The notes under the pieces were generated by a model. That model was not told the DNA's origin, ran no database searches, and saw only the letters and a list, made by a program, of their open reading frames with translations. A stretch of DNA of 64,000 nt from an uncultured Anaerococcus sp. (lineage in GTDB: Bacteria; Bacillota; Clostridia; Tissierellales; Peptoniphilaceae). The translations under genes were made by a program, and so were the position numbers. The DNA is taken from the NCBI RefSeq assembly GCF_943912825.1, contig NZ_CALTUX010000004.1:2476-66475 (forward strand), given 5' to 3'. Every line of letters begins with the position of its first letter. Positions within the stretch are counted from its first letter, which is position 1. Below, piece after piece: positions 3,924 to 54,157 of this stretch.

Positions 3924-4655
3924 ATGACAAATACTACTTATAATTTCATTATGGATATCATAAGCTCAAAATCTATCAAACTTTCTAAGTCTGAGAGGAT
4001 AATTGTCGAGAAAATCAAGGATATGGACCTTGACCTAAATAAGCTTCATATAAATGAATTTGCAAAGCTTTTAGACCTTTCAAACTCAACCATAACCCGC
4101 TTTGCCCAAAAGCTGGGCTTTGATGGATATTCTGAGCTTAAATTTAATATTTCTCAAAAACCGACTAGGTCCAAGTCCCTAAGCCAGGAAATCTACAAAA
4201 ATTTTATAGATTCCTGCAAGGCCTTTGATGATAAAACTATTGATTTTATCAAAAACCTTGCAAACTTTGGCAAGATTGCCGTAATTGGAATCGGTTCTTC
4301 TGGTCTTTGCGCCAATGAATTTGTCTACAAATTTGGCGAAATAGGCCTTGATAATACCGACTATGCCAAGGAGCCATATTCTATAAATCTCCTTAGCAAG
4401 GGGCTTTCGGCATCTGACCTTTTGATTGCAATTTCCCTTTCTGGAGAAAACCACAACCTCCTTGAAGGAGTGGACAATGCAAAGACTAATAAGGCCAAGA
4501 TCCTTGCCATCACAGGAGATGGGGAGTCAACCCTTGCCAAAGAAGCTTCCCTTGCTATCATCCTTCCACCCTATCCGAAATATTCCTACAAGATTTCAAA
4601 AATATTTCCTGTAACCTTTATGCTGGATATGATTTGTGAGGCCTATCTTAGCTAG
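3924..4655 (+). CDS. MurR/RpiR-family transcriptional regulator (HTH plus SIS sugar-phosphate-binding domain)
   Basis: HTH_6 segment FAKLLDLSNSTITRFAQKLGFDGYSELKF followed by a SIS domain (IAVIGIGSSG...). Divergent from the ROK gene. Confidence 0.85.
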   Translation: MTNTTYNFIMDIISSKSIKLSKSERIIVEKIKDMDLDLNKLHINEFAKLLDLSNSTITRFAQKLGFDGYSELKFNISQKPTRSKSLSQEIYKNFIDSCKAFDDKTIDFIKNLANFGKIAVIGIGSSGLCANEFVYKFGEIGLDNTDYAKEPYSINLLSKGLSASDLLIAISLSGENHNLLEGVDNAKTNKAKILAITGDGESTLAKEASLAIILPPYPKYSYKISKIFPVTFMLDMICEAYLS

Positions 4656-5931: not shown

Positions 5932-8549
5932 AGCTCCAATCTATATGTTTTAATCTCAAAGCCTGGCAAGTTTTTATCAATTTCATCCTTTATTTTTCTC
6001 TCACCTAAGATATCATATTCAACTGCCTTAAGATCAATCTTTTTGGCTGATTTTCCTGGATTATAGACTCTTAGGATTGGTTCGTTTTTGTCATTCCTAA
6101 AAAGAGTTGAAAAAATATTGTCACCCAGGTCGATTTTAGGAAGATTTAAATCTTTCTCTTCGATATCATTTTTATCTAGGCCAAGAGATATAAAATCTAC
6201 TCTGGCTTGTAAGATATCTTGCCTATTTTTATCAAAATCATTTGCAAAGCTTGCAAAATAAAATTCAAAGGTCATTTCAGATAAGTCATCTTTTATAAGC
6301 TGGGCATCAGGTGTTGGGAAATATCCCCAATCTCCAAGCTCGCCCACTGACCTAAAGAGGGTCATATAAAGGCCCTCGCCTTTTATCATCTCATATTCGG
6401 CAGGACCGATGGCAGATACTCCAAAGCCCTTTTTATCATTATCCATAACCTGGACATAGCGGTTGAAATTTTGGGAAAAGTCTGGGTTTTTCCATGTTTG
6501 TGGAGGATAGGCATCTCTTTCTACACATTCAAAAATGGATTCTGCATAGACCTTGTCTGTTTCAAGATTATGACCAAAGAGGAGGCGCATCCTGTGGTCT
6601 TTGGCCAAGTTTTTAAGGCTGATTTTTATCTTAAGAGGGATATTTTTATCATATAGGATGATTTCCTTATCGATGGCCATCTCTATTAAGTCACTTGACC
6701 TATTAGCCCTTCTCTGGGTGATATCGTTAAGTCTTATCTGCTCAGCTAATAGCTTATCTTCTGCTGATTTTGGAAGCTTAAAGCTTTCCCTTATCCTAAT
6801 TATGGTCTTGTCATTTTCCCTTATGATTTTTTGACCTATTAGTTTGCCGCCAAGAATCCTTGTCCCATCTGTCGATTGTCTGTAGATATATTCATTGCCA
6901 ATATCGCCTGTATCTTCGATTGCTAGGACGTTTTTAAAGCTAAGTACAGAGTTTTTATCAAATATATCAAGGCTGGCATTATCATTTATACTTAGCTTGT
7001 AAAAGTCATTTTCGATTTGTTTTTCATTTATTTCACAAGATGCAAAGGAAGATTGACCTGTAACTAGACTTAAGATTTTTTTCTCAAAGGCTCCCAATTC
7101 TAAGGAAAATCTAACCCTGACCTTATTTGCAAAATATGGCTTTCTAAACTTATCATCTGGCAAAATATAGGCAAAACCTGTGCCTAAGTAGGTGATTTCT
7201 GCTGGGATTTCTTTCCCCTCCTCATCTACTAATTTCAAAGCTGGGGCGGATTTCCCCGCAAGTTCATCATAAACATCCGGATAATCTATACCGAAAAATT
7301 TCCTGTCTATTTCAATCTCTGTCACCACTTCCTTAATCCTCCTATAAGGGAGGGTATTTATGATGCAGATAGCATAATCATTGACATTGGCAGTGCTTTC
7401 TCTAATCTTTTTCTTGGCGAAATCTTCTAGGTAATCTAGACCTTCATCCACATTCTTAAAGCGTCTTAGATTGCCATCGTGGACAGAATCTACAGAGCAG
7501 CCGCAAATGCTGTCGTGGGGGTGGTTTTTGATTAATTCTTGGTAGAAATAATCTAGCTTTTGGTGAGGATAGGCATCCCTGTCCACAAAAAGAGTGAATA
7601 GGGGTTGGATAACTTCTTCAAAACGCATCTCCAGGCTCTTGTTGTATTTTTTAAGATAATACCTAGATGATGATGTGGAGTTTAGAGTCCACCAGCCATC
7701 AGTCGCCTGACTTCTAAGCTCTCCTTTGATTGTATCAATCTCTCCCACCTCATTTTCAAGGGCCTTAAAATATAGGTCTAAATTTGAATGAACAAAGTCA
7801 TAATCCTCATAAAGAGCATTGGCCTTTTTTAAGATTTGTCCGATATTTTTCTGGACTGGCGAATGGTCGCAACCGTTCATTAAAAGAAGCTGGTTTGTAG
7901 ATGCGTATTTTTCCATATCGGCTATGCGTTTATCCATGTAGGCCTTAAGGTCTTCCTCATCTTCTGGTATATCTAGGCCATTGGCATACCAATTTGCAAA
8001 AAGCACGCTTAGGGTCTTATCCCCATTTGGGCTCTGCCAATAAATTTCAGAATTTTTTGATGTGAAATCTTCTATAACTACATTGTCAAAGCCAGTCGCC
8101 TTAACTCCCCTGCCAAAATATGCCACGTCTATCCCTGCTTTTTTAAGAATTTGGCTGGCCTGGCCAATATTGCCAAAGGTATCTGGAAAATAGCCAATCA
8201 TTGAAGGAGATCCCCACTTTTTTATATTTTTTATGCCAAGGCTTAGATTTTTAAGGTTAGACTCGCCACTTGTAAGGAAGGCATCTTGGAGGATATACCA
8301 AGGTCCTAGCTTAAGCTTTCCAGCTTCTATCAGATTTTTAATTTTTTCCTTGTTTTGAGGGCGAACCTCAAGATAATCTCCTATAGGAAGATAATGGCCA
8401 TCTAGCCAATAGTATTTAAAATCCGGGTCTTCAAAGGCCTCAAGGACTCCATCCATCAGGTCAATTAGGCGCATATGGTGGTTTTCATAAGGCAGGTACC
8501 ACTCCCTATCCCAATGAGTGTGGCTTACCACGTGGACGGTCTTTTTCAT
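5928..8549 (-). CDS. glycoside hydrolase family 38 alpha-mannosidase
   Basis: N-terminus VHVVSHTHWDREWY (GH38 metal-binding signature). 873 aa. 4-bp overlaps with both neighbours. Confidence 0.85.
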   Translation of the reverse strand: MKKTVHVVSHTHWDREWYLPYENHHMRLIDLMDGVLEAFEDPDFKYYWLDGHYLPIGDYLEVRPQNKEKIKNLIEAGKLKLGPWYILQDAFLTSGESNLKNLSLGIKNIKKWGSPSMIGYFPDTFGNIGQASQILKKAGIDVAYFGRGVKATGFDNVVIEDFTSKNSEIYWQSPNGDKTLSVLFANWYANGLDIPEDEEDLKAYMDKRIADMEKYASTNQLLLMNGCDHSPVQKNIGQILKKANALYEDYDFVHSNLDLYFKALENEVGEIDTIKGELRSQATDGWWTLNSTSSSRYYLKKYNKSLEMRFEEVIQPLFTLFVDRDAYPHQKLDYFYQELIKNHPHDSICGCSVDSVHDGNLRRFKNVDEGLDYLEDFAKKKIRESTANVNDYAICIINTLPYRRIKEVVTEIEIDRKFFGIDYPDVYDELAGKSAPALKLVDEEGKEIPAEITYLGTGFAYILPDDKFRKPYFANKVRVRFSLELGAFEKKILSLVTGQSSFASCEINEKQIENDFYKLSINDNASLDIFDKNSVLSFKNVLAIEDTGDIGNEYIYRQSTDGTRILGGKLIGQKIIRENDKTIIRIRESFKLPKSAEDKLLAEQIRLNDITQRRANRSSDLIEMAIDKEIILYDKNIPLKIKISLKNLAKDHRMRLLFGHNLETDKVYAESIFECVERDAYPPQTWKNPDFSQNFNRYVQVMDNDKKGFGVSAIGPAEYEMIKGEGLYMTLFRSVGELGDWGYFPTPDAQLIKDDLSEMTFEFYFASFANDFDKNRQDILQARVDFISLGLDKNDIEEKDLNLPKIDLGDNIFSTLFRNDKNEPILRVYNPGKSAKKIDLKAVEYDILGERKIKDEIDKNLPGFEIKTYRLEL

Positions 8550-24847: not shown

Positions 24848-26329
24848 ATGTCTTGTACAACAATATTAGTAGGTAAAAATGCCTCATACGACGGATCAAC
24901 CTTAGTAGCTAGAAATGAAGATTCAGGCAGCGGAGAGTATTGTCCAAAAAAATTCATAAAAGTTGACAAGAAAGACCAGCCAACTTTATATAAATCAGTC
25001 ATATCCCATGTAGAGATAAGCTTACCAGACAATCCCATGTCCTACACAGCCATGCCAAATGCGGTAGATAATGAAGGAATCTGGGCAGCCTGTGGAGTCA
25101 ATGAGAAAAACGTCTCAATGACAGCCACAGAAACCCTCACAAGTAACGAAAGGGTCCTAGGAGCAGACCCTCTTGTAGTCTACAAAAAGGCAGAAGATGG
25201 TAAGGAGGAGATAATCGGAGGAATCGGTGAAGAAGACATAGTCACCATCACCCTTCCCTATATAAATTCAGCTCGTGAAGGAGTCCTAAGACTAGGAAGT
25301 CTATTAGAAGAATACGGCACCTACGAAATGAACGGCATAGCCTTCCAAGATGAAGGCGAAATCTGGTGGCTAGAAACCATAGGTGGCCACCACTGGATAG
25401 CCAAAAAAGTCCCAGATGATTCCTATGTAATCATGCCAAACCAACTAGGCATCGACTCATTCGACCTAGAAGATGCTTATGGAAAAGGCGAAAACCACCT
25501 TTGCTCTAAAGATTTAAAAGATTTTATAAGAGATAATTTTCTAGACCTATCCCTAGATGGAAAGCTTAATCCAAGAGATGCCTTCGGTAGCCATTCAGAT
25601 GCAGACCACGTCTACAACACACCAAGAGCCTGGATTCTTCAAAGATTCTTCAATCCAAGATCTAACATCTGGGATGGGGAAAATGCAGACATAAGGCCAG
25701 ATGACAATGATATTCCATGGGCAAGAGTCCCTGAGAGGAAAATCACACCAGAAGATATAAAATACGCCCTCTCCCACCACTACCAAGGCACAAAATACGA
25801 CCCATATGGCAAATACGCCAACAAAAAGGGAGCCTTCAGGCCAATAGGCATCAACAGAAACAACTTCCTAGGCCTAGTCCAAATAAGACCATACATGCCA
25901 GAAGGCGTAAAATCCCTAGAATGGTTAGCCCTAGGCTCAAATGTCTACAACGCCATGGTCCCATTTTATCCAAATGTAGACGACACCCCAGCCTACCTAA
26001 GGGATACCACAGGAGATGTAACAACAGAAGACTTCTACTGGACCAACCGCCTAATAGCAGCCCTAGCCGACCCCCACTACGCAGATACAGCAAACCTCAT
26101 CGAACGCTACCAAGAAGAAATGGGCGCCATGGGCTGGGAAATAGTCCACAAATACGATAAAAAAGTAAAAGAAGAAAAGCTAGAGGGAAAGGCCTTAAAA
26201 GAAGAATTAGAAAAGGCCAACCAAGAAATAGCAGCAAATCTTAAAAAAGCAAGCCTAAAACTTTTAGACAAGGTCTTATACGAGGCAAGTAATAAAATGA
26301 AAAATTCCTTTGCTAGAAGTGATGCTTAG
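24848..26329 (+). CDS. C69-family dipeptidase
   Basis: N-terminus MSCTTILVGKNASYDGSTLVARNEDS, with the nucleophile Cys immediately after Met. Confidence 0.85.
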   Translation: MSCTTILVGKNASYDGSTLVARNEDSGSGEYCPKKFIKVDKKDQPTLYKSVISHVEISLPDNPMSYTAMPNAVDNEGIWAACGVNEKNVSMTATETLTSNERVLGADPLVVYKKAEDGKEEIIGGIGEEDIVTITLPYINSAREGVLRLGSLLEEYGTYEMNGIAFQDEGEIWWLETIGGHHWIAKKVPDDSYVIMPNQLGIDSFDLEDAYGKGENHLCSKDLKDFIRDNFLDLSLDGKLNPRDAFGSHSDADHVYNTPRAWILQRFFNPRSNIWDGENADIRPDDNDIPWARVPERKITPEDIKYALSHHYQGTKYDPYGKYANKKGAFRPIGINRNNFLGLVQIRPYMPEGVKSLEWLALGSNVYNAMVPFYPNVDDTPAYLRDTTGDVTTEDFYWTNRLIAALADPHYADTANLIERYQEEMGAMGWEIVHKYDKKVKEEKLEGKALKEELEKANQEIAANLKKASLKLLDKVLYEASNKMKNSFARSDA

Positions 26330-26352: not shown

Positions 26353-26430
26353 AGAGGGAGAGCCCGGGGCTCTCTCCTTTCCTTTATAAAATGATTTTTT
26401 AGGGGCATCCCCTAAAAATCCCCTTTTTTA
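26353..26430 (+). terminator. two consecutive terminator hairpins downstream of the dipeptidase gene
   Basis: ggagagccc-g-gggctctcc (26356-26374), then aggggcatcccct...cccctttttt with a T-run at 26424-26429. Confidence 0.7.
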
Positions 26431-27420
26431 TTATCCAAGATAATAATATTATTGTTTTATTATCCAAGGTAATATTATTATTAACTGTTACTCTTCGTTA
26501 TTTTATCACTAAATAAATTATATTTATATACTATTGAATCTCCGTCTCAAGGGGGAGCCCCAAGGGACCTTCCGCATGGTCCCTCATCGGTCTCCCCCTT
26601 GTACCCCCTCCCCGTTACACCCCCAGGCGGCCCCTAAAGCGGGGAGCATGAACAGAAGCTTGCCTTCGGCAAGCCTCTCTTTGTAGATGTAAACCCTTGT
26701 ATTAGCTATCCATATCCTTACTGATTTTGACATTCCGATGCCTAAAAATCTCAATCTAGTCCAAATTCTTGTTCTGTATAAACTATACATCTCAGTAGTT
26801 ACAGAAATTTAATTTAAACTCGTGCGTCAGGAGATTTTCTTAACGGCATCTCCACTTACAAAATCTCCCGACCTTGGGAGAATTATTTTGTATTCTTAGA
26901 GAATATTAACGTCAAAGTAGGTCTAAGGCTCGTTTGCCTTTGGCAAACATTGAGATAATAGGGTATAAAATACTAATCTATCGGGAGATTTAAAAGCAGA
27001 AGTCACCGTTAAGAAAATCACACTGACAACCATCCTTAAATAAAAATATTGTAACTACTAAGATGACAAGTGACTATAAAAAGCCAATTTGGACTAGATT
27101 GTGATTTTTAGGGGACTTTTGATTTTAAATCAGTAAGAACAAGGCTAGATAAATACGAAGTAATCCGTTATACTAAAGAAGATTTTTGAAAAAAATCTTC
27201 CCCTTTCGCACTCCGCTTTAGGAGCCGGGAGGGGGTGAAATGGGGAGGTTTAAGGAGGGGCATGAGGGGGCATCGGCCGCCCCCTTCGCCCCTCCTTTAT
27301 ACGGAGATTCAATTGTATATAAAAATAATTATCTATAAGACGAAGATACGAAGTATTCATGTTAATAATATTATCTTGGATAAAAAAAAGAGGGTCTTAG
27401 GGGGATGCCCCCTAAAACCT
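26395..27420. repeat. about 1 kb imperfect palindrome (two inverted arms of roughly 500 bp) with GC-rich G-tract cores and terminal terminator-like hairpins
   Basis: Arm-to-arm complementarity traced by eye: ttatccaagataata...attgaatctccg at 26431-26545 against 27297-27383, ctccgctttagg / gggggtg-aa-gggga cores, cttactgattt...caatctagtccaaatt...tagtagttaca...gattttcttaacgg at 26720-26850 against 27000-27130. The centre is near 26907-26947. Confidence 0.7.
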
Positions 27421-27439
27421 TCTTTTAAAAATTGATTAT

Positions 27440-28123
27440 TTATTCATATTTAGCCAACAAGTTATTTGCTTGTTTTATTAATTTTTCTTGTTTGACCATT
27501 AATTGATCAAGCTCTGCCCTTACTGATTTTATTGTTTCTGGTGTGAATTTGATTAGTAAGTGGCAAGCGTTTAAGGTTACTTCTGCTTGTTTTTTGGCTG
27601 CCCTTAGGCCTGCTATGGCTTTTTTGTTTGCTTCTGACTTATCTTTATTTTCTGGCTTTTTATTTTCATCCTTTTTTGGAGCTTCTTTTTCAGGTTTTGC
27701 TTGTGTTTGGTCTAGCTCTCTCATCCTGATTTCTATTCTATCGTCATTTCTATAACCTACAAGAGGTACATCAAATTCACCTTCTGCTACAAATGGCGCT
27801 CCTGGTTCATCCGTTTCTTTTAGCTTGAAGGTTACTCTTTCGCCTCTCTTATATGTTGCTTTATTTGTTATTTTACCGCCCCAAAATTTATTTGGAACTC
27901 CATTGATATAGACATACTCTGCTTTATAATAGTCGTTGTATTCTTTAGATTTACCTACTTTTCTTAAAAGTGTAAATGATAGGTCTATTGTATCATTTTT
28001 TGTAGCTTGTTCTTCTTTTGCATAAGCTACATTGCTATCTAAATTTGCACCTAAGCCAAATCCTAGGGCGCTTATTGATAGGCCTAGGGCCATAGTCATC
28101 ATTATTTTCTTTGATTTTTTCAT
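27440..28123 (-). CDS. secreted hypothetical protein with Lys/Glu-rich coiled-coil C-terminus
   Basis: Signal peptide MKKSKKIMMTMALGLSISALGFGLGA...AYA|KEE. No recognisable enzymatic motif. Confidence 0.55.
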   Translation of the reverse strand: MKKSKKIMMTMALGLSISALGFGLGANLDSNVAYAKEEQATKNDTIDLSFTLLRKVGKSKEYNDYYKAEYVYINGVPNKFWGGKITNKATYKRGERVTFKLKETDEPGAPFVAEGEFDVPLVGYRNDDRIEIRMRELDQTQAKPEKEAPKKDENKKPENKDKSEANKKAIAGLRAAKKQAEVTLNACHLLIKFTPETIKSVRAELDQLMVKQEKLIKQANNLLAKYE

Positions 28124-36044: not shown

Positions 36045-36078
36045 AAAAAATGGAGCTGTTGCAAAACTATGAATAACT

Positions 36079-36220
36079 ATCGTCCCATCATTAGAGAAAA
36101 GCCCGTCGGCTCTTTGAGACTCTCCTAGAAAATTTTTGGGCCGACCGTCGGCTTCGAATTGCCTGCCGGCTCGTGGAGGCAAAATTTTCGTTGAGGTTCC
36201 TCTAATGATTTGGGACGATT
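36079..36220. repeat. about 140-bp MITE-like element bounded by 18-bp terminal inverted repeats; member of a dispersed repeat family
   Basis: TIRs atcgtcccatcattagag (36079-36096) and ctctaatgatttgggacgat (36201-36220). Internal motifs aagcccgtcggctc and ccggctcgtgg recur in reverse complement at 44690-44710 and 44925-44945. Confidence 0.55.
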
Positions 36221-36265
36221 TATTCATTCTGTAACAGCCCCATTTCGGGAGGGATACATTTATTT

Positions 36266-43173: not shown

Positions 43174-44139
43174 TCATTTAGTCGTTCCACCCTCCTCGAA
43201 CCTAACTTTTACATAAGAATTAGCATAATAATTCTCATCCTCAATATTTTTAAGTAAGATATCCACACTCCTTGTCGCAATCTCTTCAACATCTTGGACA
43301 ATGGTAGAAACCATATAAGACCTCTCTTCGCTAAGCTTGATCCCATCAAAACCAATCAGCTGGTAATCAACTAAGACTTCCTTACCAATAGCCTTTAAAG
43401 TCTCAATAGCATCCATGCCCACAAAGTCATTGATAGTAAAAATACCATCTATACCAGGATTTTCCTCAAAAATCGCGTATATCTCATCGTCAAATCCCTC
43501 ATAGGGTTCAAGTATATCAATAATGTGGAAAGAAATCTTCTTATCCCTACAAAAATCTTCAAAACCCCTTCTTCTGTCCATGGTAGCATTCATAAATTTA
43601 TTATGACTTCCCACATACAAAAGCTCTTTACATCCCTTACTAAACAAGGTCTCAGCAGCCAAAAGGCCACCCTCGTAGTTTTGACTAGCCACAAAATTAA
43701 TATTCTTATCAAACTTTCTGTCGATACTTACGAAAGGTAAATTGGAATTAATATAAACTTCGATATCAGAATAGGAAATCGCTATTATCCCATCGATCAT
43801 ATTCTTCCTAAGCATCTGCAAATACTGGATTTCACTATCTTCACATCCATTGCTATTGCACAAAAGAAGCTTATAACCCCTCTTTTGTAAAACTTGTTCT
43901 ACATGAAAAGCCATCTCCGAAAAAAACGGGTGCCAGATAGTAGGAATAATTAGACCAATAGTATTAGTTTTATTATTCTTAAGACCACTAGCTAGGTCAT
44001 TTTTTTCATAATTAAGCTTCTCAATAGCATCCATCACCCTCCTATAAGTCTCAGGCTTAACCTCCCTTCCATTAATAACATTACTCACACTTCCTAAGCT
44101 AACCTTTGCCTCGTTAGCAACATCCTTCATAGTAGCCAT
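43174..44139 (-). CDS. LacI-family transcriptional regulator
   Basis: HTH ATMKDVANEAKVSLGSVSNVING plus a periplasmic-binding-protein-like sugar-binding domain. First gene of the GH32 operon. Confidence 0.9.
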   Translation of the reverse strand: MATMKDVANEAKVSLGSVSNVINGREVKPETYRRVMDAIEKLNYEKNDLASGLKNNKTNTIGLIIPTIWHPFFSEMAFHVEQVLQKRGYKLLLCNSNGCEDSEIQYLQMLRKNMIDGIIAISYSDIEVYINSNLPFVSIDRKFDKNINFVASQNYEGGLLAAETLFSKGCKELLYVGSHNKFMNATMDRRRGFEDFCRDKKISFHIIDILEPYEGFDDEIYAIFEENPGIDGIFTINDFVGMDAIETLKAIGKEVLVDYQLIGFDGIKLSEERSYMVSTIVQDVEEIATRSVDILLKNIEDENYYANSYVKVRFEEGGTTK

Positions 44140-44179
44140 CTTGTAACTCCTTTATTTTATCTTGAATAAATTTAATCTT

Positions 44180-44191
44180 TGAAACGTTTCA
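44180..44191. promoter_or_regulatory. 12-bp CG-centred palindrome TGAAACGTTTCA, candidate LacI-family operator 1 of 3
   Basis: Perfect palindrome 41 bp upstream of the lacI-type gene start. Confidence 0.5.
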
Positions 44192-44242
44192 ATTATATCA
44201 TAAAAAAATATATTTTGCACTTAAATTTTTAAAATGAGAATT

Positions 44243-44254
44243 TGTAACGTTTCA
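44243..44254. promoter_or_regulatory. TGTAACGTTTCA, operator-like site 2 of 3
   Basis: Same half-sites with one mismatch. 63 bp from site 1. Confidence 0.5.
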
Positions 44255-44307
44255 AAATTTATCCAAAATAAAAATCCCAGCTTAAACTAATATGAGAATT
44301 AATTTTT

Positions 44308-44319
44308 GTAACGTTTCAT
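44308..44319. promoter_or_regulatory. TGTAACGTTTCA, operator-like site 3 of 3
   Basis: Identical to site 2. 65 bp from site 2. Confidence 0.5.
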
Positions 44320-44439
44320 TTATTACAAGTCCATTATATGATAACATTTTCATCTTGTCAAGAGTTTTTTTGGAAAATCTTAAGTTTTATGGTAGAAAGC
44401 TTTTCAAGCTTCCTTCTTTACCCTTTTTCTTAAGCGTGG

Positions 44440-45165
44440 TCGAGAGAACTATTACTTTCTTTCGAGCTTCGCTCGACCACTCTGCCTCTGCACCAGTCCT
44501 TCCTCAATCTTCTTTCAGAAGATTGGGATAGGGCTTCGCGTGGGGCTCCTCTTCGCGCCGGAGGGGCGTTTTTCAATCCTAAAATAAGCCTAAGAACGAT
44601 AATTTGCAATATTCAAAGGCTTTGTGAAAATTAAGCAAAAGCCTGCCCTAAGTATTTTTTTAACTCCCTACAAAATCTTTAGGCTTGTCTCCTAGAGCCG
44701 ACGGGCTTGATACAAGGTCGAAGCAAGGGAGGGTGGTCGAAGCTAGGTCTCTCTTTTAATTTACTAAGTTAAGGAAGATAATGAATATTATAGTAAAAAG
44801 CCAAATGTCATGTCGAACCCTCCTAGAGGGTGAGATATCCCATTTTTTGATTATTTATTTGAAAACATATGTCTATCTTAGGGGCTTCTTTTTTCGAGCT
44901 TCGCTCGACCATTTCATGGAGAGTCCTCCACGAGCCGGACGGGCTTGTTCCCTTGTCTCGAGCGAAGTCGAGAGACCTATTACGCACACTAAAATTCCAA
45001 AACAAGCCTAAGAGCGATAATTTGCAATATTCGAAGGATTTTGAAAATAAAGTAAAAGCTTGCCCTTTATGTATTTCGACACCTTACAAAACTTTTAGGC
45101 TTCTCCACGTTGGTCGAAGCAAGGGTAGCAGAGGTCGAAGCAAGGGGAATGTTATTCCAAGAAAA
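44440..45165. repeat. tandem duplication (two copies, unit about 400-430 bp) of a non-coding element carrying stem-loops; related to the element at 36079-36220
   Basis: ttcgagcttcgctcgacc at 44461 and 44893; aagcctaaga(a/g)cgataatttgcaatattc(a/g)aagg at 44587 and 45004; ggtcgaagcaaggg at 44716, 45110 and 45132. Internal inverted repeats gtggtcgag...ctcgaccac. Confidence 0.6.
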
Positions 45166-48988: not shown

Positions 48989-50023
48989 ATGACAAAATCA
49001 ATAGAAAAAAATATAAGGGGAATCATACTCTGCCTCCTAATAGCGACTATATCTCAAATTATCGGCAAAAAAGTACCCCTAGTAGGACCTGCAGTATTTG
49101 CAATACTCATAGGCATGGTCCTCGGTCAAATAATCAAAAACAAAACACCCTACATGGACGGAGTAAGATTCACCTCCAAAAAAATCCTACAATACGCCGT
49201 AATCCTCCTAGGATTCGGACTAGATTTAGGCCTAGTATTAAAAACAGGAAGAGAATCACTACCAATCATCCTATCAACCATATCAAGCTCACTATTAGTA
49301 GCATTCATAGCCAGCAAAACAGGCCTCATCAAAGACCACATAGCAACACTAATAGGAGTAGGCTCATCAATTTGTGGAGGATCCGCCATAGCAGCCGCCG
49401 CACCAGTAATAGATGCAGACGAAGATGAAATCGCCCAAGCCATATCAGTAATATTCTTTTTTAACATCCTAGCCGCTCTTCTTTTCCCAAGCCTGGGACA
49501 GCTAATCGGCTTTAGCCACGCCAACGGTCATGCCTTCGGAATATTTGCAGGATCAGCAGTAAACGATACATCATCAGTCACAGCCACAGCATCCACATGG
49601 GACACAATCTTCAACCTAGGCAGCCAAACCCTAGATGAAGCAGTCACCGTCAAGCTAACCAGGACCCTTGCCATAATCCCAATATGCCTAGGCCTAGCCT
49701 TCATAAGAATGAAAAATACAGACACAGATGATAGCAAAAAAATATCCATCAAACAAATATTTCCATTTTTCATAATATATTTCATAATAGCAAGCCTAAT
49801 CACAACCATAGCCCTCGCCAAGGGAGTAGACATAGGATACTTCAAACCCTTCAAAGACCTATCCAAATTTTTCATAGTAATGGCAATGTCAGCCATAGGC
49901 TTCAACAGCGACATAGTAAAACTAGTAAAATCAGGCTCCAAACCCCTAGCCCTAGGAGGAACATGCTTCATAATCATCACATCAATAACCCTAATAGGAG
50001 AAAAACTCATCGGGCTGTTGTAG
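48989..50023 (+). CDS. YeiH/UPF0324-family membrane protein (putative sulfate exporter family)
   Basis: Polytopic protein with conserved GVGSSICGGSAIAAAAPVI. The start is placed at ATG 48989 (GGAGG RBS at 48977-48983) rather than the GTG at 48974. The LysR-YeiH divergent pairing is as in E. coli yeiE-yeiH. Confidence 0.7.
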   Translation: MTKSIEKNIRGIILCLLIATISQIIGKKVPLVGPAVFAILIGMVLGQIIKNKTPYMDGVRFTSKKILQYAVILLGFGLDLGLVLKTGRESLPIILSTISSSLLVAFIASKTGLIKDHIATLIGVGSSICGGSAIAAAAPVIDADEDEIAQAISVIFFFNILAALLFPSLGQLIGFSHANGHAFGIFAGSAVNDTSSVTATASTWDTIFNLGSQTLDEAVTVKLTRTLAIIPICLGLAFIRMKNTDTDDSKKISIKQIFPFFIIYFIIASLITTIALAKGVDIGYFKPFKDLSKFFIVMAMSAIGFNSDIVKLVKSGSKPLALGGTCFIIITSITLIGEKLIGLL

Positions 50024-50045
50024 ACAAAAAATAAAGATAAAAGCA

Positions 50046-50088
50046 AAACACCCACTCATATCTAAGATTGAGTAGGTGTTTTTGTTTG
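50046..50088 (+). terminator. rho-independent terminator
   Basis: acacccactca...tgagtaggtgt hairpin followed by a T-run. Confidence 0.7.
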
Positions 50089-50279
50089 TAGGTTAAATAA
50101 GGAAAAATAAAACTGTTGACCAAAAACCACCAAAAAATCCAGAAAATGTATTTAAAATACTCTCCTGGCTTTTCTGTGATGGGCAACCATATTGTCGCCC
50201 CGGCACTAATCTATTTTTCAACTTAAAATAACTCTAAAAAATATTTAATTATACGTATTGTTTACGCATCAGTTAAAAC

Positions 50280-53036
50280 CTACAGATAATTCTTATAGTT
50301 TCTAATTATAAAATGATCATCTGATTCTGCTTTAGATTTTATAAATTCATACGCTTCAACATCTATTGATTTGATGCTTTCTAAATTTTTTAATATCAAA
50401 AACTTTATGTGTGCGCTATCAAAATTCATCATTTTATTAATCCTACTGATTATAGATTTTTTATTATATACTCTCAACATATATAACATAGCTTCTACAG
50501 AACGGTATCTTACACTAAGATTACTGTCATACGATTTTTGTAAAACAAATTGCAAAATTGCCGCTTTTATATCATCTTTAGCATTAGATATATAACCATA
50601 TTTACAGATATTAAAAATTGTACGAAGTGATTCAATCTTGTCAAAATCATCTACATCTGTGTATGTAGCTAATAATAGAATTAAATCATCAATCTCAAGT
50701 TTATCTAAAACTAATTTTAAAATAGAAAATTTAAAATTTAAAGTAAATTGTGATTGCATTCCTATGAAGTTAGAATCTCTTACATTTAGTATAGTCTCTT
50801 CATTTTCTAACATATACTTAATATTTTTATTTTCCTTATATTCTTCACTATTATTTAAAATCGAAATAATCAAATCAAGCGCTCCGCATTTTTCATAAAT
50901 CAGCTGATTTTCAGCTAACAAAGTCTCTACGCATGCATCTATAATTTCATATTTTATATCATTTTCAATCTCAATTTTTTTAACATCTATTATATTTCTT
51001 ATATTTGTATATGGGTCATATCCTGACATAGAATATTTTCCATCAACACCCTGACTCTTATTTCTTTCATGAATAATTTGTATATTTTTATTTATAAATT
51101 CTAAAATCACATCTTGATTATTAGTTTCTAACACTTTATATATCATCTTTGTAATTTCAGGAAAATATTCGTTTACTATTAAATCTACTTTTGTATTAAT
51201 TTTAATGTTGTCAGAAAAGCATTTATTAATATTAGAAAATAACTCAGCTAAATTATCATAATTGATGGATATCCCATCTAAGTTTATAATTTTAATAATT
51301 TTATCGAGTAATTTCACTATAGTTTTGATATTAATGCTTTGTATATCTACATCCCCTAATAAAGATACTATATTGCGATAGAATCGCGATAAGTCATTAT
51401 CAATGAATAAAATTATTATATTTACAATTTCTTCACCGCATATTCTTTTAATATTGTATTCTATAGCATCAAAAAAATAATATCCTAAATTTATAACTCT
51501 ATTTTTATCAGATATCCATGTCAGAATATAAGCGTGTAATTCTTCCCAAACCTCAGTAAAAAAATCATCATTAAAGTAACAACCTAAATATTGAAAGCAT
51601 AAAAATTTTCTAATATTTCTCCTATGAACAATAGGATAATTCTCAATGCTTTTATATATTTCTCTCGCAGTTGTACTATCCATTTTTCCATAGATATCAT
51701 TAAATAAATTGTAGACTTTTTTTATTTCTTTAGGTCTTTCTGAAATAAGTGTTGTCTTTATTAGAAATTTTCTAAAATTCCAATCATCATACTCATCACA
51801 CAGTTGATAAACCATTAACTTCATCATATCAATAATTGAAATTAAATGAGATAAAGATCCGTAATAAATAGCTGTAATATAATAATTTGATATATACATT
51901 ATATATTTAGAAATATTATTCCCATACCTTACAGTACTTGGACTCTTTGATGCCTCATTTATTGTTTCTTTAATTATTTCTTTATATAAATTTTTTTCAT
52001 TTCTATCATTTAATGGATAATATAATGGCTTCTTATTCGATAATATCTTTTTCTGTTCTTCATTGGATATAACAATCTTATTATTTATTTCATTATCAAA
52101 ATTCCTGAGATTTCTTAAATCTATCGTAATATCTTGTAAATACCAGTTAGGAAGCTTGTTATTTTTTGCTATATCATATGCTTTATTCATATCAATAATA
52201 GCTTTGTCTATGTCGCCCTTAAAATAATTTACTATGGCATTCCACCTAGATTCAGTAACTTCAGAATATTTTTCACTTTGATTTTTGCCAATCTCGAAAA
52301 GTAAATGTGGTTTATCAAATCTATATATTGAATCATTATAAAATAACACATCTAAAAACTGACTAGATAGAATATCAAATTTATTAGTGCGATCTTCAGG
52401 AATATCTGATTCTAATCCTATTAACTCACATAGCTTATTTTTAGTTACATTAATACTAGAATACAAGCTTTTATCTATTTCATCGGCTGATTCAAAGTCA
52501 TTATCATTAAAGTTATCTATTCCATTATTATTAATATCATAAAAATTTGTAGAGACTAAGTGCCCCCTACAATAATTAGCATATATCTCAATAATTTCAA
52601 TAATTAGACTTTCATAAACTGTCTCTTTTAACTTATCAAATTCATTAATAGTTTTATATTTGGGACCATTATTATCACGAATTTCTTGCTGCAGCCGTGT
52701 TATTTTTTTGTTATCGTCATTACAAAATATAAATATCGATTTCTTAGATAATATTAAGGAACGTCTATACTCTGTTACAACCCCTTCTGGAACATCTTCT
52801 TCATTAGATATTAAAAATAAACAAACATCTGAATCATTGAGTTTATTTAAATAAGAATCTCTTGCAGTCATTGAACTAGCCATGGTACCTTCAAAAACAT
52901 ACGCGCTAATAAAGCCTGTTTCTTCTAAAAGTAATTTTAATTCATTTCTAATAGTATCATATTTTTCATCACCGCACTTAGAACTTATAAAAACCTTAAT
53001 CTTGTCTTCAAATTTAATATTATAATTCAATAGCAT
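50280..53036 (-). CDS. 918-aa hypothetical protein with N-terminal DUF4062-like domain and long alpha-helical repeat region (candidate defence protein); very AT-rich gene
   Basis: N-terminus KVFISSKCGDEKYDTIRNELKLLLEETGF...DVCLFLISNEEDVPEGVVTEYRRSL matches the DUF4062 pattern (FISS...acidic...hydrophobic core). The remainder is Leu/Ile/Asn-rich helical repeats. GC is visibly far below that of the flanking genes. Confidence 0.5.
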   Translation of the reverse strand: MLLNYNIKFEDKIKVFISSKCGDEKYDTIRNELKLLLEETGFISAYVFEGTMASSMTARDSYLNKLNDSDVCLFLISNEEDVPEGVVTEYRRSLILSKKSIFIFCNDDNKKITRLQQEIRDNNGPKYKTINEFDKLKETVYESLIIEIIEIYANYCRGHLVSTNFYDINNNGIDNFNDNDFESADEIDKSLYSSINVTKNKLCELIGLESDIPEDRTNKFDILSSQFLDVLFYNDSIYRFDKPHLLFEIGKNQSEKYSEVTESRWNAIVNYFKGDIDKAIIDMNKAYDIAKNNKLPNWYLQDITIDLRNLRNFDNEINNKIVISNEEQKKILSNKKPLYYPLNDRNEKNLYKEIIKETINEASKSPSTVRYGNNISKYIMYISNYYITAIYYGSLSHLISIIDMMKLMVYQLCDEYDDWNFRKFLIKTTLISERPKEIKKVYNLFNDIYGKMDSTTAREIYKSIENYPIVHRRNIRKFLCFQYLGCYFNDDFFTEVWEELHAYILTWISDKNRVINLGYYFFDAIEYNIKRICGEEIVNIIILFIDNDLSRFYRNIVSLLGDVDIQSINIKTIVKLLDKIIKIINLDGISINYDNLAELFSNINKCFSDNIKINTKVDLIVNEYFPEITKMIYKVLETNNQDVILEFINKNIQIIHERNKSQGVDGKYSMSGYDPYTNIRNIIDVKKIEIENDIKYEIIDACVETLLAENQLIYEKCGALDLIISILNNSEEYKENKNIKYMLENEETILNVRDSNFIGMQSQFTLNFKFSILKLVLDKLEIDDLILLLATYTDVDDFDKIESLRTIFNICKYGYISNAKDDIKAAILQFVLQKSYDSNLSVRYRSVEAMLYMLRVYNKKSIISRINKMMNFDSAHIKFLILKNLESIKSIDVEAYEFIKSKAESDDHFIIRNYKNYL

Positions 53037-53203
53037 ACCTCATCACTTTCATTTAAAATAAACAGAATCTAATCTTTATAGTTACCTCTATTGTACTTTA
53101 ACTGTCCATAAAGCTCAAAGATGGTGAAATGTTTTGCTATTTAAGTTTAATGAATTAAATGATATAATATTTATTAAGTAATAATATTATAAAACTAATA
53201 TTT

Positions 53204-54157
53204 GTGAATAGATTTGAGGTTATTATGAAACAACCGTTGATTGATTTTTCTTCTTATCCTGTTAGGCTTACGCTAAAGCGTTTGCTTAAGGATAAGTCTA
53301 CTAAAAAAAATATAATATGGGCCACTAATAACTATGAAGACTTTGGTCAGGCTTTTAATGATAGGGCTGAAATTACTGAAGCTGTTTTTGATCATGGATT
53401 TATCCTTGAGCCTAGGACTAGCAAGTCGGCTGAGACTCAGCTGGAACGTACTAGGAAGAAGGCTGAAGTCTATACCCCTACTTGGGTGGTTAATTTTATG
53501 AATAATTATTGCGATGAGGTCTATTTTGGTAGGAAGGATGTCTTTAATATTCCAAAGGATAAGACATGGGTCCCTCTTAGGGAGAAAATTTCTTTTCCTG
53601 AAGGGAAATCCTGGCAAGACTATGTTGATTCTCCTAGGCTTGAAATAACTTGTGGAGAGGGCCCTTATCTTGTATCTAGATATGATGTGGCGACTAGTCA
53701 CTTAATTAGACATACCATAGACAGGATTGGCTTTCTGGATAGGAAGCTTAGGATAGTTAATGAAAATACTGACTCTAAGGAAGACTGGACACATTGGGCT
53801 ATAAGAGCTGTTCAGGCCTCTTATGGCTATGAATACCAGGGTGACAGCTTGTTACTAGCTAGGATAAATGTCCTACTTACCTTTGTAGAATATTATGAAC
53901 AAAGATGGGATGAGGATGTGGCTAAAGATATCCTAAATAAGCTTGCCAATATCATCAGCTGGAATATCTGGCAAATGGATGGACTTACTGACACAGTACC
54001 CTTTGGAGCGCCAGTGCCTAATAATGAACAAATGAGTATATTTGATTTATTTGAAGATAAGAAAGATGAAGAAGAAAGTAAACTCATAGCCTGTAGGATA
54101 TTTGATTGGAAAGCCAACAAGTCCCAGACTTTCGCATCACTTAAGGAGCATATATGA
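53204..54157 (+). CDS. N-terminal half of a split gamma-class N6-adenine DNA methyltransferase (motifs X, I and II/III; no NPPY)
   Basis: AEVYTPTWVVNFM (motif X; compare TaqI GRVETPPEVVDFM), LEITCGEGPYL (motif I) and YGYEYQGDSLLLARINVLL (GxExD...A..N region). Its stop overlaps the next ATG (ATGA). Confidence 0.6.
   Translation: MNRFEVIMKQPLIDFSSYPVRLTLKRLLKDKSTKKNIIWATNNYEDFGQAFNDRAEITEAVFDHGFILEPRTSKSAETQLERTRKKAEVYTPTWVVNFMNNYCDEVYFGRKDVFNIPKDKTWVPLREKISFPEGKSWQDYVDSPRLEITCGEGPYLVSRYDVATSHLIRHTIDRIGFLDRKLRIVNENTDSKEDWTHWAIRAVQASYGYEYQGDSLLLARINVLLTFVEYYEQRWDEDVAKDILNKLANIISWNIWQMDGLTDTVPFGAPVPNNEQMSIFDLFEDKKDEEESKLIACRIFDWKANKSQTFASLKEHI

Follow-up and report, generated by a model that had tools for sequence, protein, structure and literature searches.

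What is encoded, if anything, by a kilobase of inverted repeat that fills the gap between two convergent genes? The question is raised by the window analysed here, a 64,000-nucleotide (64-kb) stretch of an uncultured Anaerococcus sp. (RefSeq assembly GCF_943912825.1, contig NZ_CALTUX010000004.1, positions 2,476 to 66,475). Within it, positions 26383-27431 form an imperfect inverted repeat with arms of ~490 and ~450 nt that are 67-79% identical. A sequence-only reading of this DNA had offered three options for the element: a pair of divergent structured non-coding RNAs (ncRNAs), a foldback element, or a recombination hotspot. The first of these fits best. It is favoured because the hairpins within the arms change in a compensatory manner and G·U pairing is biased to the outward strand. 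That the element consists of two divergently transcribed 450-560-nt structured ncRNA genes is, in our estimate, about evenly balanced. The element is also one copy of a dispersed ~1.1-kb repeat family, the units of which are always found in divergent pairs.

The two arms and their structure

The inverted repeat is real and far beyond chance. A repeat search resolved collinear blocks at 26383-26871 and 26981-27431 (pairs I1-I6, I9, I10 and I13), which run from the outer ends inward in the order I2/I5/I6, I10, I3, I13, I9, I1, I4. Comparison of the arms with each other, as the sequence-only reading had proposed, gave 79% column identity when the left arm was aligned with the reverse complement of the right arm in MAFFT, and 66.8% identity over 976 nt by blastn (E = 4e-52). 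The claim of a ~1-kb palindrome is confirmed by these three comparisons. The largest gap in the MAFFT alignment is 32 nt and contains an additional copy of the TTATCCAAG motif in the left arm. The arms had also been described as reverse-complementary right up to a central hairpin. This is correct for the arms and incorrect for the central 110 bp (26872-26980), of which only a 17-nt hairpin is palindromic. The outer and central hairpins themselves are present (26396-26418, 27397-27415 and 26932-26948). The element is composed of three parts:

26383-26871, minus strand: left arm, an L-type unit read outward, ~490 nt, homologous to the right arm
26872-26980, no strand assigned: non-palindromic centre, 110 bp, presumed divergent promoter or control region, which aligns across 14 elements
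26981-27431, plus strand: right arm, an R-type unit read outward, ~450 nt, homologous to the left arm

Across the family there are three paralogous arm types with one common architecture: L (the left arm of the window), R (the right arm of the window) and C. Each arm of the window carries the GC-rich core of ~100 nt that had been read in it, and the two cores (26536-26680 and 27211-27313) are the longest of six places in the window where 60-nt windows reach at least 62% G+C. Each arm is composed of a 5' domain near the centre and a 3' core farther out:

26723-26871, minus strand: left 5' domain, with the nested long-range stems P1 GAUUUUG/CAAAAUC, P1b GAUGCC/GGCAUC and P2 GAAAAUCUC/GAGAUUUUU
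26540-26681, minus strand: left GC-rich 3' core, with hairpin H (26658-26674), a small hairpin, a G-rich segment (26600-26627) and a long hairpin (26548-26602); 152.8 bits with the covariance model of the core
26987-27131, plus strand: right 5' domain, with P1 GAUUUAAAA/UUUUAAAUC, P1b and P2, from RNAalifold on the R arms alone; this is inverted repeat I12
27174-27306, plus strand: right GC-rich 3' core, with hairpin H (27178-27201), a G-rich segment (27227-27250) and a long hairpin (27252-27298); 117.5 bits with the same model

The RNA fold z-scores of the whole arms are -7.4 (left) and -7.3 (right). An analysis of covariation across homologues, another of the checks proposed, was carried out on 16 distinct arms. 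For the 3' core, RNAalifold returned hairpin H, a small hairpin and a long two-tier hairpin. In the core alignment, 97.4% of cells are paired, and 11 of the 27 pairs are altered on both sides. The covariation score was matched by none of 500 column shuffles, and sliding the partners by 1-3 columns brought pairing down to 52-64%. Hairpin H illustrates the pattern: L arms have the stem GGCUUGCC/GGCAAGCU, R arms GAUUUUU/AAAAAUC and C arms GAUUGCC/GGCAAUC. Some cores hold optional inserts, each folding into a self-contained hairpin that branches off the long hairpin; the inserts are common to different arm types. They include an 80-nt block in some L and R arms and the GUCUCCAUGAGCCGACGGGCUG block in loci L014 and L022.

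Within an arm type, conservation is highest in the 5' domain, the nested architecture of which is kept by all three types despite 20-30% divergence. Stem P2 is GAAAAUCUC/GAGAUUUUU in L, GAAAAUCACA/UGUGAUUUUU in R and GAAAAUUU/AAAUUUUU in C, with covariation among types (CACA/UGUG in R, UU/AA in C). Stem P1b is GAUGCC/GGCAUC in L, AAGUC.CC/GG.GACUU in R and GUCAGC or GUCGGC/GCUGAC in C. One pair of the C-type P1 stem takes the forms U·G, C-G and U-A. In 13 L copies, several long single-stranded blocks are near-invariant. The L-type 5' fold is not settled, because RNAalifold favours an alternative local 5' hairpin in L arms that is broken without compensation by substitutions in three copies. 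The hairpins inside the arms are maintained by compensatory changes.

These helices prefer one strand. Read outward, the core helices have G·U in 56 cells and A·C in 2; read inward, their pairing falls from 97.4% to 84.7%. The outward consensus has 27 pairs and -28.8 kcal/mol, compared with 21 pairs and -25.1 kcal/mol for an inward consensus derived independently. For single sequences, the outward minimum free energy is equal to or lower than the inward one in 12/12 arms, with a gap of up to 35 kcal/mol in the L and C types. The UUCG-tetraloop stems that had been read in the left core do not survive this analysis. There, UUCG lies on the plus (inward) strand, and the favoured RNA strand reads GAA/CGAAG, which varies between copies.

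The G tracts lie on the outward strand in both arms of the window, with G4Hunter maxima of 2.2 and 2.0, and the outward maximum is 1.64-2.44 in 26/26 arms. The strict G-quadruplex (G4) motif, defined as four tracts of at least three G on one strand separated by loops of 1-7 nt, is found in seven of the 26 arms, namely the left arm of the window and 6/24 others. The right arm of the window needs one longer loop. The G-tract cores had been described in both arms; the outward-strand tracts are there in each, and the strict motif holds for the left and fails for the right. One G tract doubles as the 5' strand of the covarying long hairpin, and in L arms another is able to pair with CUCCCCG. At the sequence level the G4 potential is real, and it competes with supported helices.

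A protein-coding reading of the arms was rejected. The two open reading frames (ORFs) of note are the following:

26584-26790, minus strand: 68-aa ORF in the left arm
27235-27435, plus strand: 66-aa ORF in the right arm

The two ORFs are at non-equivalent positions and are neither positional homologues nor conserved. In most L copies, codon 2 of the 68-aa ORF is a stop (AUGUAG...), and the ORF has no counterpart in R or C arms. The arms had been said to contain neither a transposase nor an ORF led by a ribosome-binding site. There is indeed no transposase in the element; the 68-aa and 66-aa ORFs exist and are unconserved. An 18-aa ORF that follows the Shine-Dalgarno-like AAGGGGGAG in the core was discarded, as its start ATG is ATA in three copies. 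A type I toxin-antitoxin system was also rejected, with no ORF conserved across arm types and a 68-aa ORF that is basic rather than hydrophobic and, in most L copies, has its stop at codon 2. By inspection, without a systematic scan of the inward strand, no conserved small hydrophobic ORF was apparent in the arms. The 'proteins' called inside element copies are 42-75 aa in length. Hypothetical proteins annotated by gene callers in the element, such as NH286_08685 of Anaerococcus sp. NML200574, are almost certainly spurious and are useful as search handles.

The centre and the outer ends of the element contain candidate signals for transcription:

26932-26948, no strand assigned: central hairpin GTTTGCCTTTGGCAAAC (GTTTGCC-TTT-GGCAAAC), 17 nt, in 14/14 centres
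26887-26915, minus strand: candidate left promoter TTGACG-17-TACAAA, read from the sequence
26909-26882, minus strand: overlapping alternative for the left promoter, TTAATA-16-AATAAT, from the promoter scan
26940-26971, plus strand: candidate right promoter TTGGCA-18-TATAAAAT (TTGGCA-18-TATAAA), read from the sequence and not reported by the consensus scan
26396-26418, no strand assigned: left outer hairpin, terminator-like on both strands in the scan
27386-27425, no strand assigned: right outer hairpin, composed of an A-tract, a stem (core 27397-27415) and a T-tract; reported by the scan at 27397-27415 (plus) and 27393-27419 (minus)
26431-26472, no strand assigned: TTATC-N3-GATAA motif, present twice (TTATCCAAGATAA and TTATCCAAGGTAA) in the A/T-rich left-arm tail
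27371-27383, no strand assigned: one TTATC-N3-GATAA motif (TTATCCAAGATAA) in the tail of the right arm

The centre is 100% identical between the window and L015-L017, where the arms are 89-97% and the flanking genes 94-99% identical. The half-sites of the central hairpin, GTTTGC and GCAAAC, are kept in 14 centres, with a loop or spacer of 4-5 nt. We infer outward promoters in this centre. The rightward sigma-A candidate described earlier is present, at a corrected position (26940-26971), and its hexamers are only partly conserved. Its -10 element is TAAAAT or TATACT in five of six aligned R-arm centres and TAATAA in L014.

The outer hairpins are putative intrinsic (Rho-independent) terminators by their match to the consensus, a G+C-rich stem and then a T tract. 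The region has eight terminator-like sites, compared with 1.7 expected, and both outer hairpins are among them. The right one is bidirectional in form, because its stem lies between an A-tract and a T-tract, and is the first terminator after the 227-aa gene on that side. Orthologous loci retain 92-94% identity over its terminal 50 nt, even with a different arm type. Between loci, the sequence of the outermost hairpin varies, and the hairpin is missing from some arms. Near-matches to TTATC-N3-GATAA number five in the window, compared with 0.38 expected, and three of them are in the element. In most arms TTATCCAAGATAA occurs one to three times, immediately inside the outer hairpins and occasionally immediately outside them. 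A DnaA box or Fur box reading of TTATCCAAGATAA was set aside as a partial match (7/9 to TTATCCACA).

A dispersed family in Anaerococcus

Homologues of the element were found by two routes; L numbers denote loci. DNA pattern scans yielded the first relatives, L009 of A. kampingiae among genome contigs and L010-L012 among metagenome contigs. The genome scan used a strict 25-base pattern that was probably too strict, and A. kampingiae was its sole match. A fourth metagenome match, L013, was discarded on inspection as a chance hit; the other three are genuine loci. Two of the contigs (OJLW01...) end in an untrimmed Nextera adapter, CTGTCTCTTATACACATCT..., at L010:3066-3090 and L012:3691-3736, which is not biology. 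The productive route was a protein search with the spurious 68-aa ORF of the left arm, which returned 21 related 'proteins' whose contigs carry further copies. At least eight unrelated intergenic sites in Anaerococcus are occupied:

PepD / 227-aa gene: window, L001 and L015-L019
M20 peptidase / MFS transporter: L014
Holin / ribonucleotide reductase: L022
CNNM / CorA: L021, L028 and L029
MetK / MreB: L023-L027
M16 peptidase / GFO oxidoreductase: L030-L032
Adjoining LrgB: L033
Adjoining an ATP-grasp-like gene of A. kampingiae, recognised by eye from the sequence: L009

The search of related genomes that had been suggested thus revealed a multi-copy family at at least eight sites, a feature that the first reading had overlooked. 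The high-coverage assembly ERZ14212856 alone contains at least three copies. A covariance model of the core gives two strong divergent matches per element recovered whole, and one match, or a weak second, in copies that are truncated or interrupted by an insertion sequence (IS). In the 64-kb window its only matches are 26540-26681 (minus) and 27174-27306 (plus). No element copy was found in phage and plasmid collections (blastn, distant mode) or in viral contigs (pattern scans), and a full-text literature search turned up no account of an element like this from Anaerococcus or relatives. Within the reach of these searches, the family is previously undescribed and confined to a few Anaerococcus species. 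One of its loci also carries an unrelated feature, an FMN (flavin mononucleotide) riboswitch at L023:7454-7571 (102.6 bits), upstream of an ECF riboflavin-transporter gene.

The copies reveal what the palindrome is. The left arm of the window is 81-93% identical to L-type arms at at least eight other loci. The L arm is partnered by either R or C: a C arm is its partner in L011, L019, L021, L023, L028, L030, L033 and L038, and R arms also occur in L009, L010, L012, L014, L015, L022 and L034. At the PepD locus of the metagenome contig L019, C stands in place of the R arm of the window. Copies were retrieved through the L-arm ORF; hence the apparent constancy of L may reflect retrieval. Over the first 210 nt, identity is 88-92% for same-type arms from different loci, 77-79% between types and 74-84% for the two partners of one element. 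The complementarity between arms is not maintained by selection, because partners are less alike than same-type arms and the types swap; therefore, the functional form is not a foldback of 1 kb, be it of RNA or of cruciform DNA. This pattern of identities rules out a functional long hairpin over the whole kilobase and, with the replacement of R by C at the PepD locus, removes the foldback option. Judged by these comparisons, the palindrome is two diverged paralogous units placed head to head rather than a functional foldback.

The family is also mosaic. In close relatives, the ABC-transporter gene is 97-99% identical and the arms are 70-97% identical with differing types and modules, which suggests that copies exchange modules rather than diverge by point mutation. 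In locus L034 (5690-6840), the 227-aa gene is followed by an R arm, an L arm and CorA. Locus L019 (1-1180) has PepD, an L arm and a C arm, with the contig end inside the C arm. The two look like reciprocal exchange products of the PepD/227-aa element and the CNNM/CorA element (L028:3250-4340), which is unproven because L019 ends in the C arm.

The element is also a target of IS insertion. IS3-family ends, TGTAGGACTCCCCAAAAGTTGTAG and TGGTACCCCCAAAAAGTTGTAG, interrupt the core in L009 (~6810-6839), in L011 (~4385-4419) and twice in L021 (1930-3497). An IS110-family element lies in L030 (4149-5727), between CCGATGAG and AGGGACC. The insertion points fall within ~20 nt of one another, at the internal loop or inner stem of the long hairpin (CGAUGAG|GGACC), and these positions mark the internal loop as a hot spot for IS insertion. 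Contigs often stop inside the element, and these insertions probably explain many such ends. The option of a recombination hotspot can be kept as a side effect, with the mosaic modules, L034 and L019, and the contig breaks in its favour, and is dropped as the purpose of the element.

The two genes that flank the element in the window are the following:

24848-26329, plus strand: C69 dipeptidase gene (pepD), with its own terminator at 26356-26376, just outside the element
27440-28123, minus strand: gene for a 227-aa protein with a signal-peptide-like N-terminus and no Pfam match

The element occupies the gap between these convergent genes. The surroundings are ordinary chromosome, with a RadA-like protein, GCS2, an ABC transporter and a flavocytochrome; no tRNA or tmRNA was found in the window. 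The 227-aa gene (27440-28123, minus) is hypervariable, with 72-99% nucleotide identity where the adjacent ABC-transporter gene is 97-99% identical.

Weighing the explanations

Under the favoured explanation, each arm would be the gene for a large structured ncRNA, transcribed outward from the common 110-bp centre. At its 5' end the RNA would have an A/U-rich domain that nested long-range stems close; a short hairpin, the G+C-rich core and an A-rich tail would come next, in that order. The core would present a largely unpaired G-rich segment and a long hairpin able to accommodate additional inserted hairpins, and the tail would carry the TTATC-N3-GATAA motifs. Transcription would then end at a bidirectional intrinsic terminator, predicted by its match to the consensus, at the outer edge. 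One guess is that the RNA serves as a scaffold or sequestering RNA by means of its conserved single-stranded blocks and G-rich segment. Module exchange, termination or insulation of neighbouring genes, landing of IS3 and IS110 elements, chromosomal rearrangement and assembly breaks would be side effects of a multi-copy quasi-palindrome.

Several points weigh against this explanation. Transcription and its direction are both things that we infer. The candidate -35 and -10 hexamers are mediocre and partly conserved across copies. The strand energy gap is small in R arms (0-11 kcal/mol), and the outward advantage is somewhat inflated by a consensus structure that was derived on the outward strand. 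Hairpins tolerant of G·T could form in single-stranded DNA too. Much of the covariation lies between the three arm types or in shuffled modules, and cells were counted rather than independent events; the independent events are fewer than the cell counts for this reason. The effective sequence number of the core covariance model is 1.68. Finally, the wobble positions of TTATC-N3-GATAA, read from the sequences, have no consistent strand bias. Because the wobble strand differs between copies, the motif may act as a double-stranded DNA site for a dimeric protein and not as an RNA hairpin.

The last of these points also belongs to the explanation that survives best among the alternatives, a non-autonomous DNA transposon of the foldback kind or like a miniature inverted-repeat transposable element (MITE). 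The arms would be long terminal inverted repeats, the TTATC motifs transposase sites, the hairpins DNA-level structures and any RNA incidental. The many copies at unrelated intergenic sites (80-92% alike), the lack of coding capacity and the inverted-repeat architecture are all as expected, and the arms are inverted homologues that include the outer 70 nt (I2, I5, I6), as are the terminal inverted repeats of a MITE. The near-palindromic motif close to both ends, at five near-matches for 0.38 expected and without strand-consistent wobble, also suits a protein-binding site. However, no target-site duplication is recognisable: in the window, the flanks CCTTTCCTTTATAAAATGATT and CCTTCTTTTAAAAATTGATT are merely similar A/T-rich sequences that can equally be taken for an inverted repeat, and L028 shows no duplication. 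This is a weak test, as the ends of the element are fuzzy. There is no sharply conserved terminus, because the outermost hairpins vary or are absent. Nor was an empty site found at the one locus that this test covers, the 227-aa gene, where each of the eight loci with homologues of the gene (63-80% protein identity; L034-L041) either has the element or stops inside it. No associated transposase, and no autonomous relative encoding one, was found among the 40 real loci, and the IS3 (rve) and IS110 (DEDD) genes there are separate insertions with their own ends. Compensatory changes and a G·U strand bias deep in the arms would not be expected of repeats bound by a transposase. We regard such a transposon as unlikely. 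The readings are not fully exclusive, and a selfish dispersed element with RNA-gene arms would partly fit both this one and the ncRNA pair.

The ends of the element were also compared with those of a palindrome-associated transposable element (PATE) derived from IS200/IS605 and with a guide-RNA end of TnpB or IscB. These were rejected, as the ends are symmetric and the favoured strand is outward on both sides. No tnpA, tnpB or iscB was found in the window or the loci, and the HEARO model of Rfam gave no match.

A passive inverted duplication is quite unlikely. It would have been spread by recombination and kept as a terminator or insulator block, in the manner of REP/BIME or BOX, without a dedicated RNA. 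The outer hairpins could terminate the converging neighbours, with the right one the first after the 227-aa gene, but this would need only the outer 40 nt of each arm and not ~450 nt of covarying structure. The module mosaic and an element region more variable than its flanking genes are consistent with passive spread, as are small GC-rich hairpins such as GAGCCGACGGGCT, which are common to other intergenic repeats in the window. It is at odds with the nested architecture kept across types through 20-30% divergence, with a centre 100% conserved in close relatives and with single-stranded blocks that are near-invariant in 13 L copies.

Some Firmicute small RNAs (sRNAs) with C-rich single strands target Shine-Dalgarno sequences. 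Each arm could instead encode an inward sRNA of ~140 nt that starts just outside the core, exposes the C-rich CCCCCUCCCC and ends at hairpin H and CUUCUUU, with the tail as promoter or operator. The scan does report a plus-strand promoter-like TTATCA-18-TATACT (26503-26532) and a terminator-like site at 26658-26674 followed by CTCTCTTTGT, and the halves of the arm are separable, as L011, L023 and L028 combine the outer module (core and tail) with a very different inner module. Such sRNAs are nonetheless very unlikely, as 56 outward-paired cells become A·C mismatches (seven of them in the proposed terminator, hairpin H), many copies have a different sequence, a GTCATCA...TGATGAC hairpin, where the TATACT site would be, and the 5' domain, the most conserved part within types, is left unexplained.

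Known systems and significance

The ncRNA pair has no counterpart among the Rfam families searched. Rfam 15, with OLE, ROOL, GOLLD, HEARO, raiA, group I/II introns and self-cleaving ribozymes among its models, gave no match at the gathering score in the whole window, and at E <= 1 only chance miRNA-like matches of 18-27 bits; the elements at six other loci gave nothing at E <= 0.1. The Rfam/Infernal search that had been proposed, run on the window and the six other copies, therefore returned no relevant family. A hammerhead or k-turn reading of the CGAUGAGG internal loop was ruled out by inspection and by the absent Rfam match.

Several large bacterial RNAs (OLE, ROOL, GOLLD, HEARO/IscB omega-RNA and raiA) resemble the element in their length of several hundred nucleotides, their many covarying stems and their high G+C content in A+T-rich genomes. 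HEARO, ROOL and GOLLD are multi-copy or tied to mobile DNA. Unlike these RNAs, the element has no Rfam match or associated protein gene, is arranged in divergent pairs, is found in narrower taxa and is known from its sequence alone. The Firmicute sRNA families LhrC1-5 and csRNAs are likewise encoded by several paralogues in one genome, and every gene has a promoter and a terminator of its own, which are candidates here. Those RNAs are only 50-150 nt, do not form head-to-head pairs and are not part of a repeat that moves as a block.

Modular intergenic repeats are known as BOX in Streptococcus pneumoniae, REP/BIME and ERIC in enterobacteria and Correia in Neisseria, and IS110-family elements insert into REP sequences. 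Like these repeats, the element is multi-copy, intergenic, non-coding and imperfectly palindromic, with shuffled modules, possible terminators and IS targets. By the features that define REP/BIME, BOX and ERIC, its multi-copy, intergenic and modular nature fits, whereas its length of 1.1 kb (against under ~300 bp) and its promoter-like centre do not. It is 3-10 times larger than all of these, has two 0.5-kb covarying units and a promoter-like non-palindromic centre, and is found without sequence similarity to them in a few Anaerococcus species only, a comparison drawn from general knowledge. MITEs and foldback transposons share its inverted-repeat architecture, non-coding nature, many copies and short motifs repeated near the ends. 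The element differs from them in that no target-site duplication, conserved terminal nucleotides, empty sites or parent transposon were found and in that its arms belong to three paralogue lineages.

Other repeats and features were seen elsewhere in the window. A second GC-rich intergenic repeat of ~200 nt, without an Rfam match, lies at 36050-36250 and also at L009:3591-3762 and L034:7849-8004. Within it lies AGCCCGTCGGCTC, a small hairpin also found as the optional insert GAGCCGACGGGCT of the L014 and L022 cores. A 0.7-kb intergenic region at 44400-45130, again without an Rfam match, has a pair of direct repeats separated by ~420 nt, in which blocks of 23-49 nt are 78-96% identical; it also has GC-rich patches and a hairpin of the GAGCCGACGGGCT type. 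At 44167-44323, the palindromic TTTG(A/T)AACGTTTCA occurs three times at ~64-nt spacing, upstream of the minus-strand gene 43174-44139, the first in a run of minus-strand ORFs; these motifs resemble LacI-family operators. Positions 50001-54000 have a G+C content of 0.25-0.31, compared with ~0.38 elsewhere, and coincide with a 918-aa ORF (50280-53036, minus). This may mark acquired DNA.

Large structured bacterial RNAs with covariation are rare, and repeatedly of unusual biochemistry. We suggest only tentatively, and with considerable doubt, that the element represents a new ornate class of ~0.5-kb ncRNA, arranged in head-to-head pairs within a protein-free repeat that is present in many copies per genome, with an RNA that is either cellular or selfish. 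If so, the invariant single-stranded blocks and G4-prone segment of the RNA might sequester a protein or aid the spread or homogenisation of the element. The family is unusual in format, with divergent paralogue pairs, three arm lineages and expansion hairpins, and its host genus consists of human-associated, poorly studied anaerobes. The element matters to the genomics of the genus even should the RNA itself prove functionless, as it breaks Anaerococcus assemblies, acts as a hot spot for IS3 and IS110 insertion, exchanges modules, appears to mediate rearrangements and is a source of spurious protein annotation.

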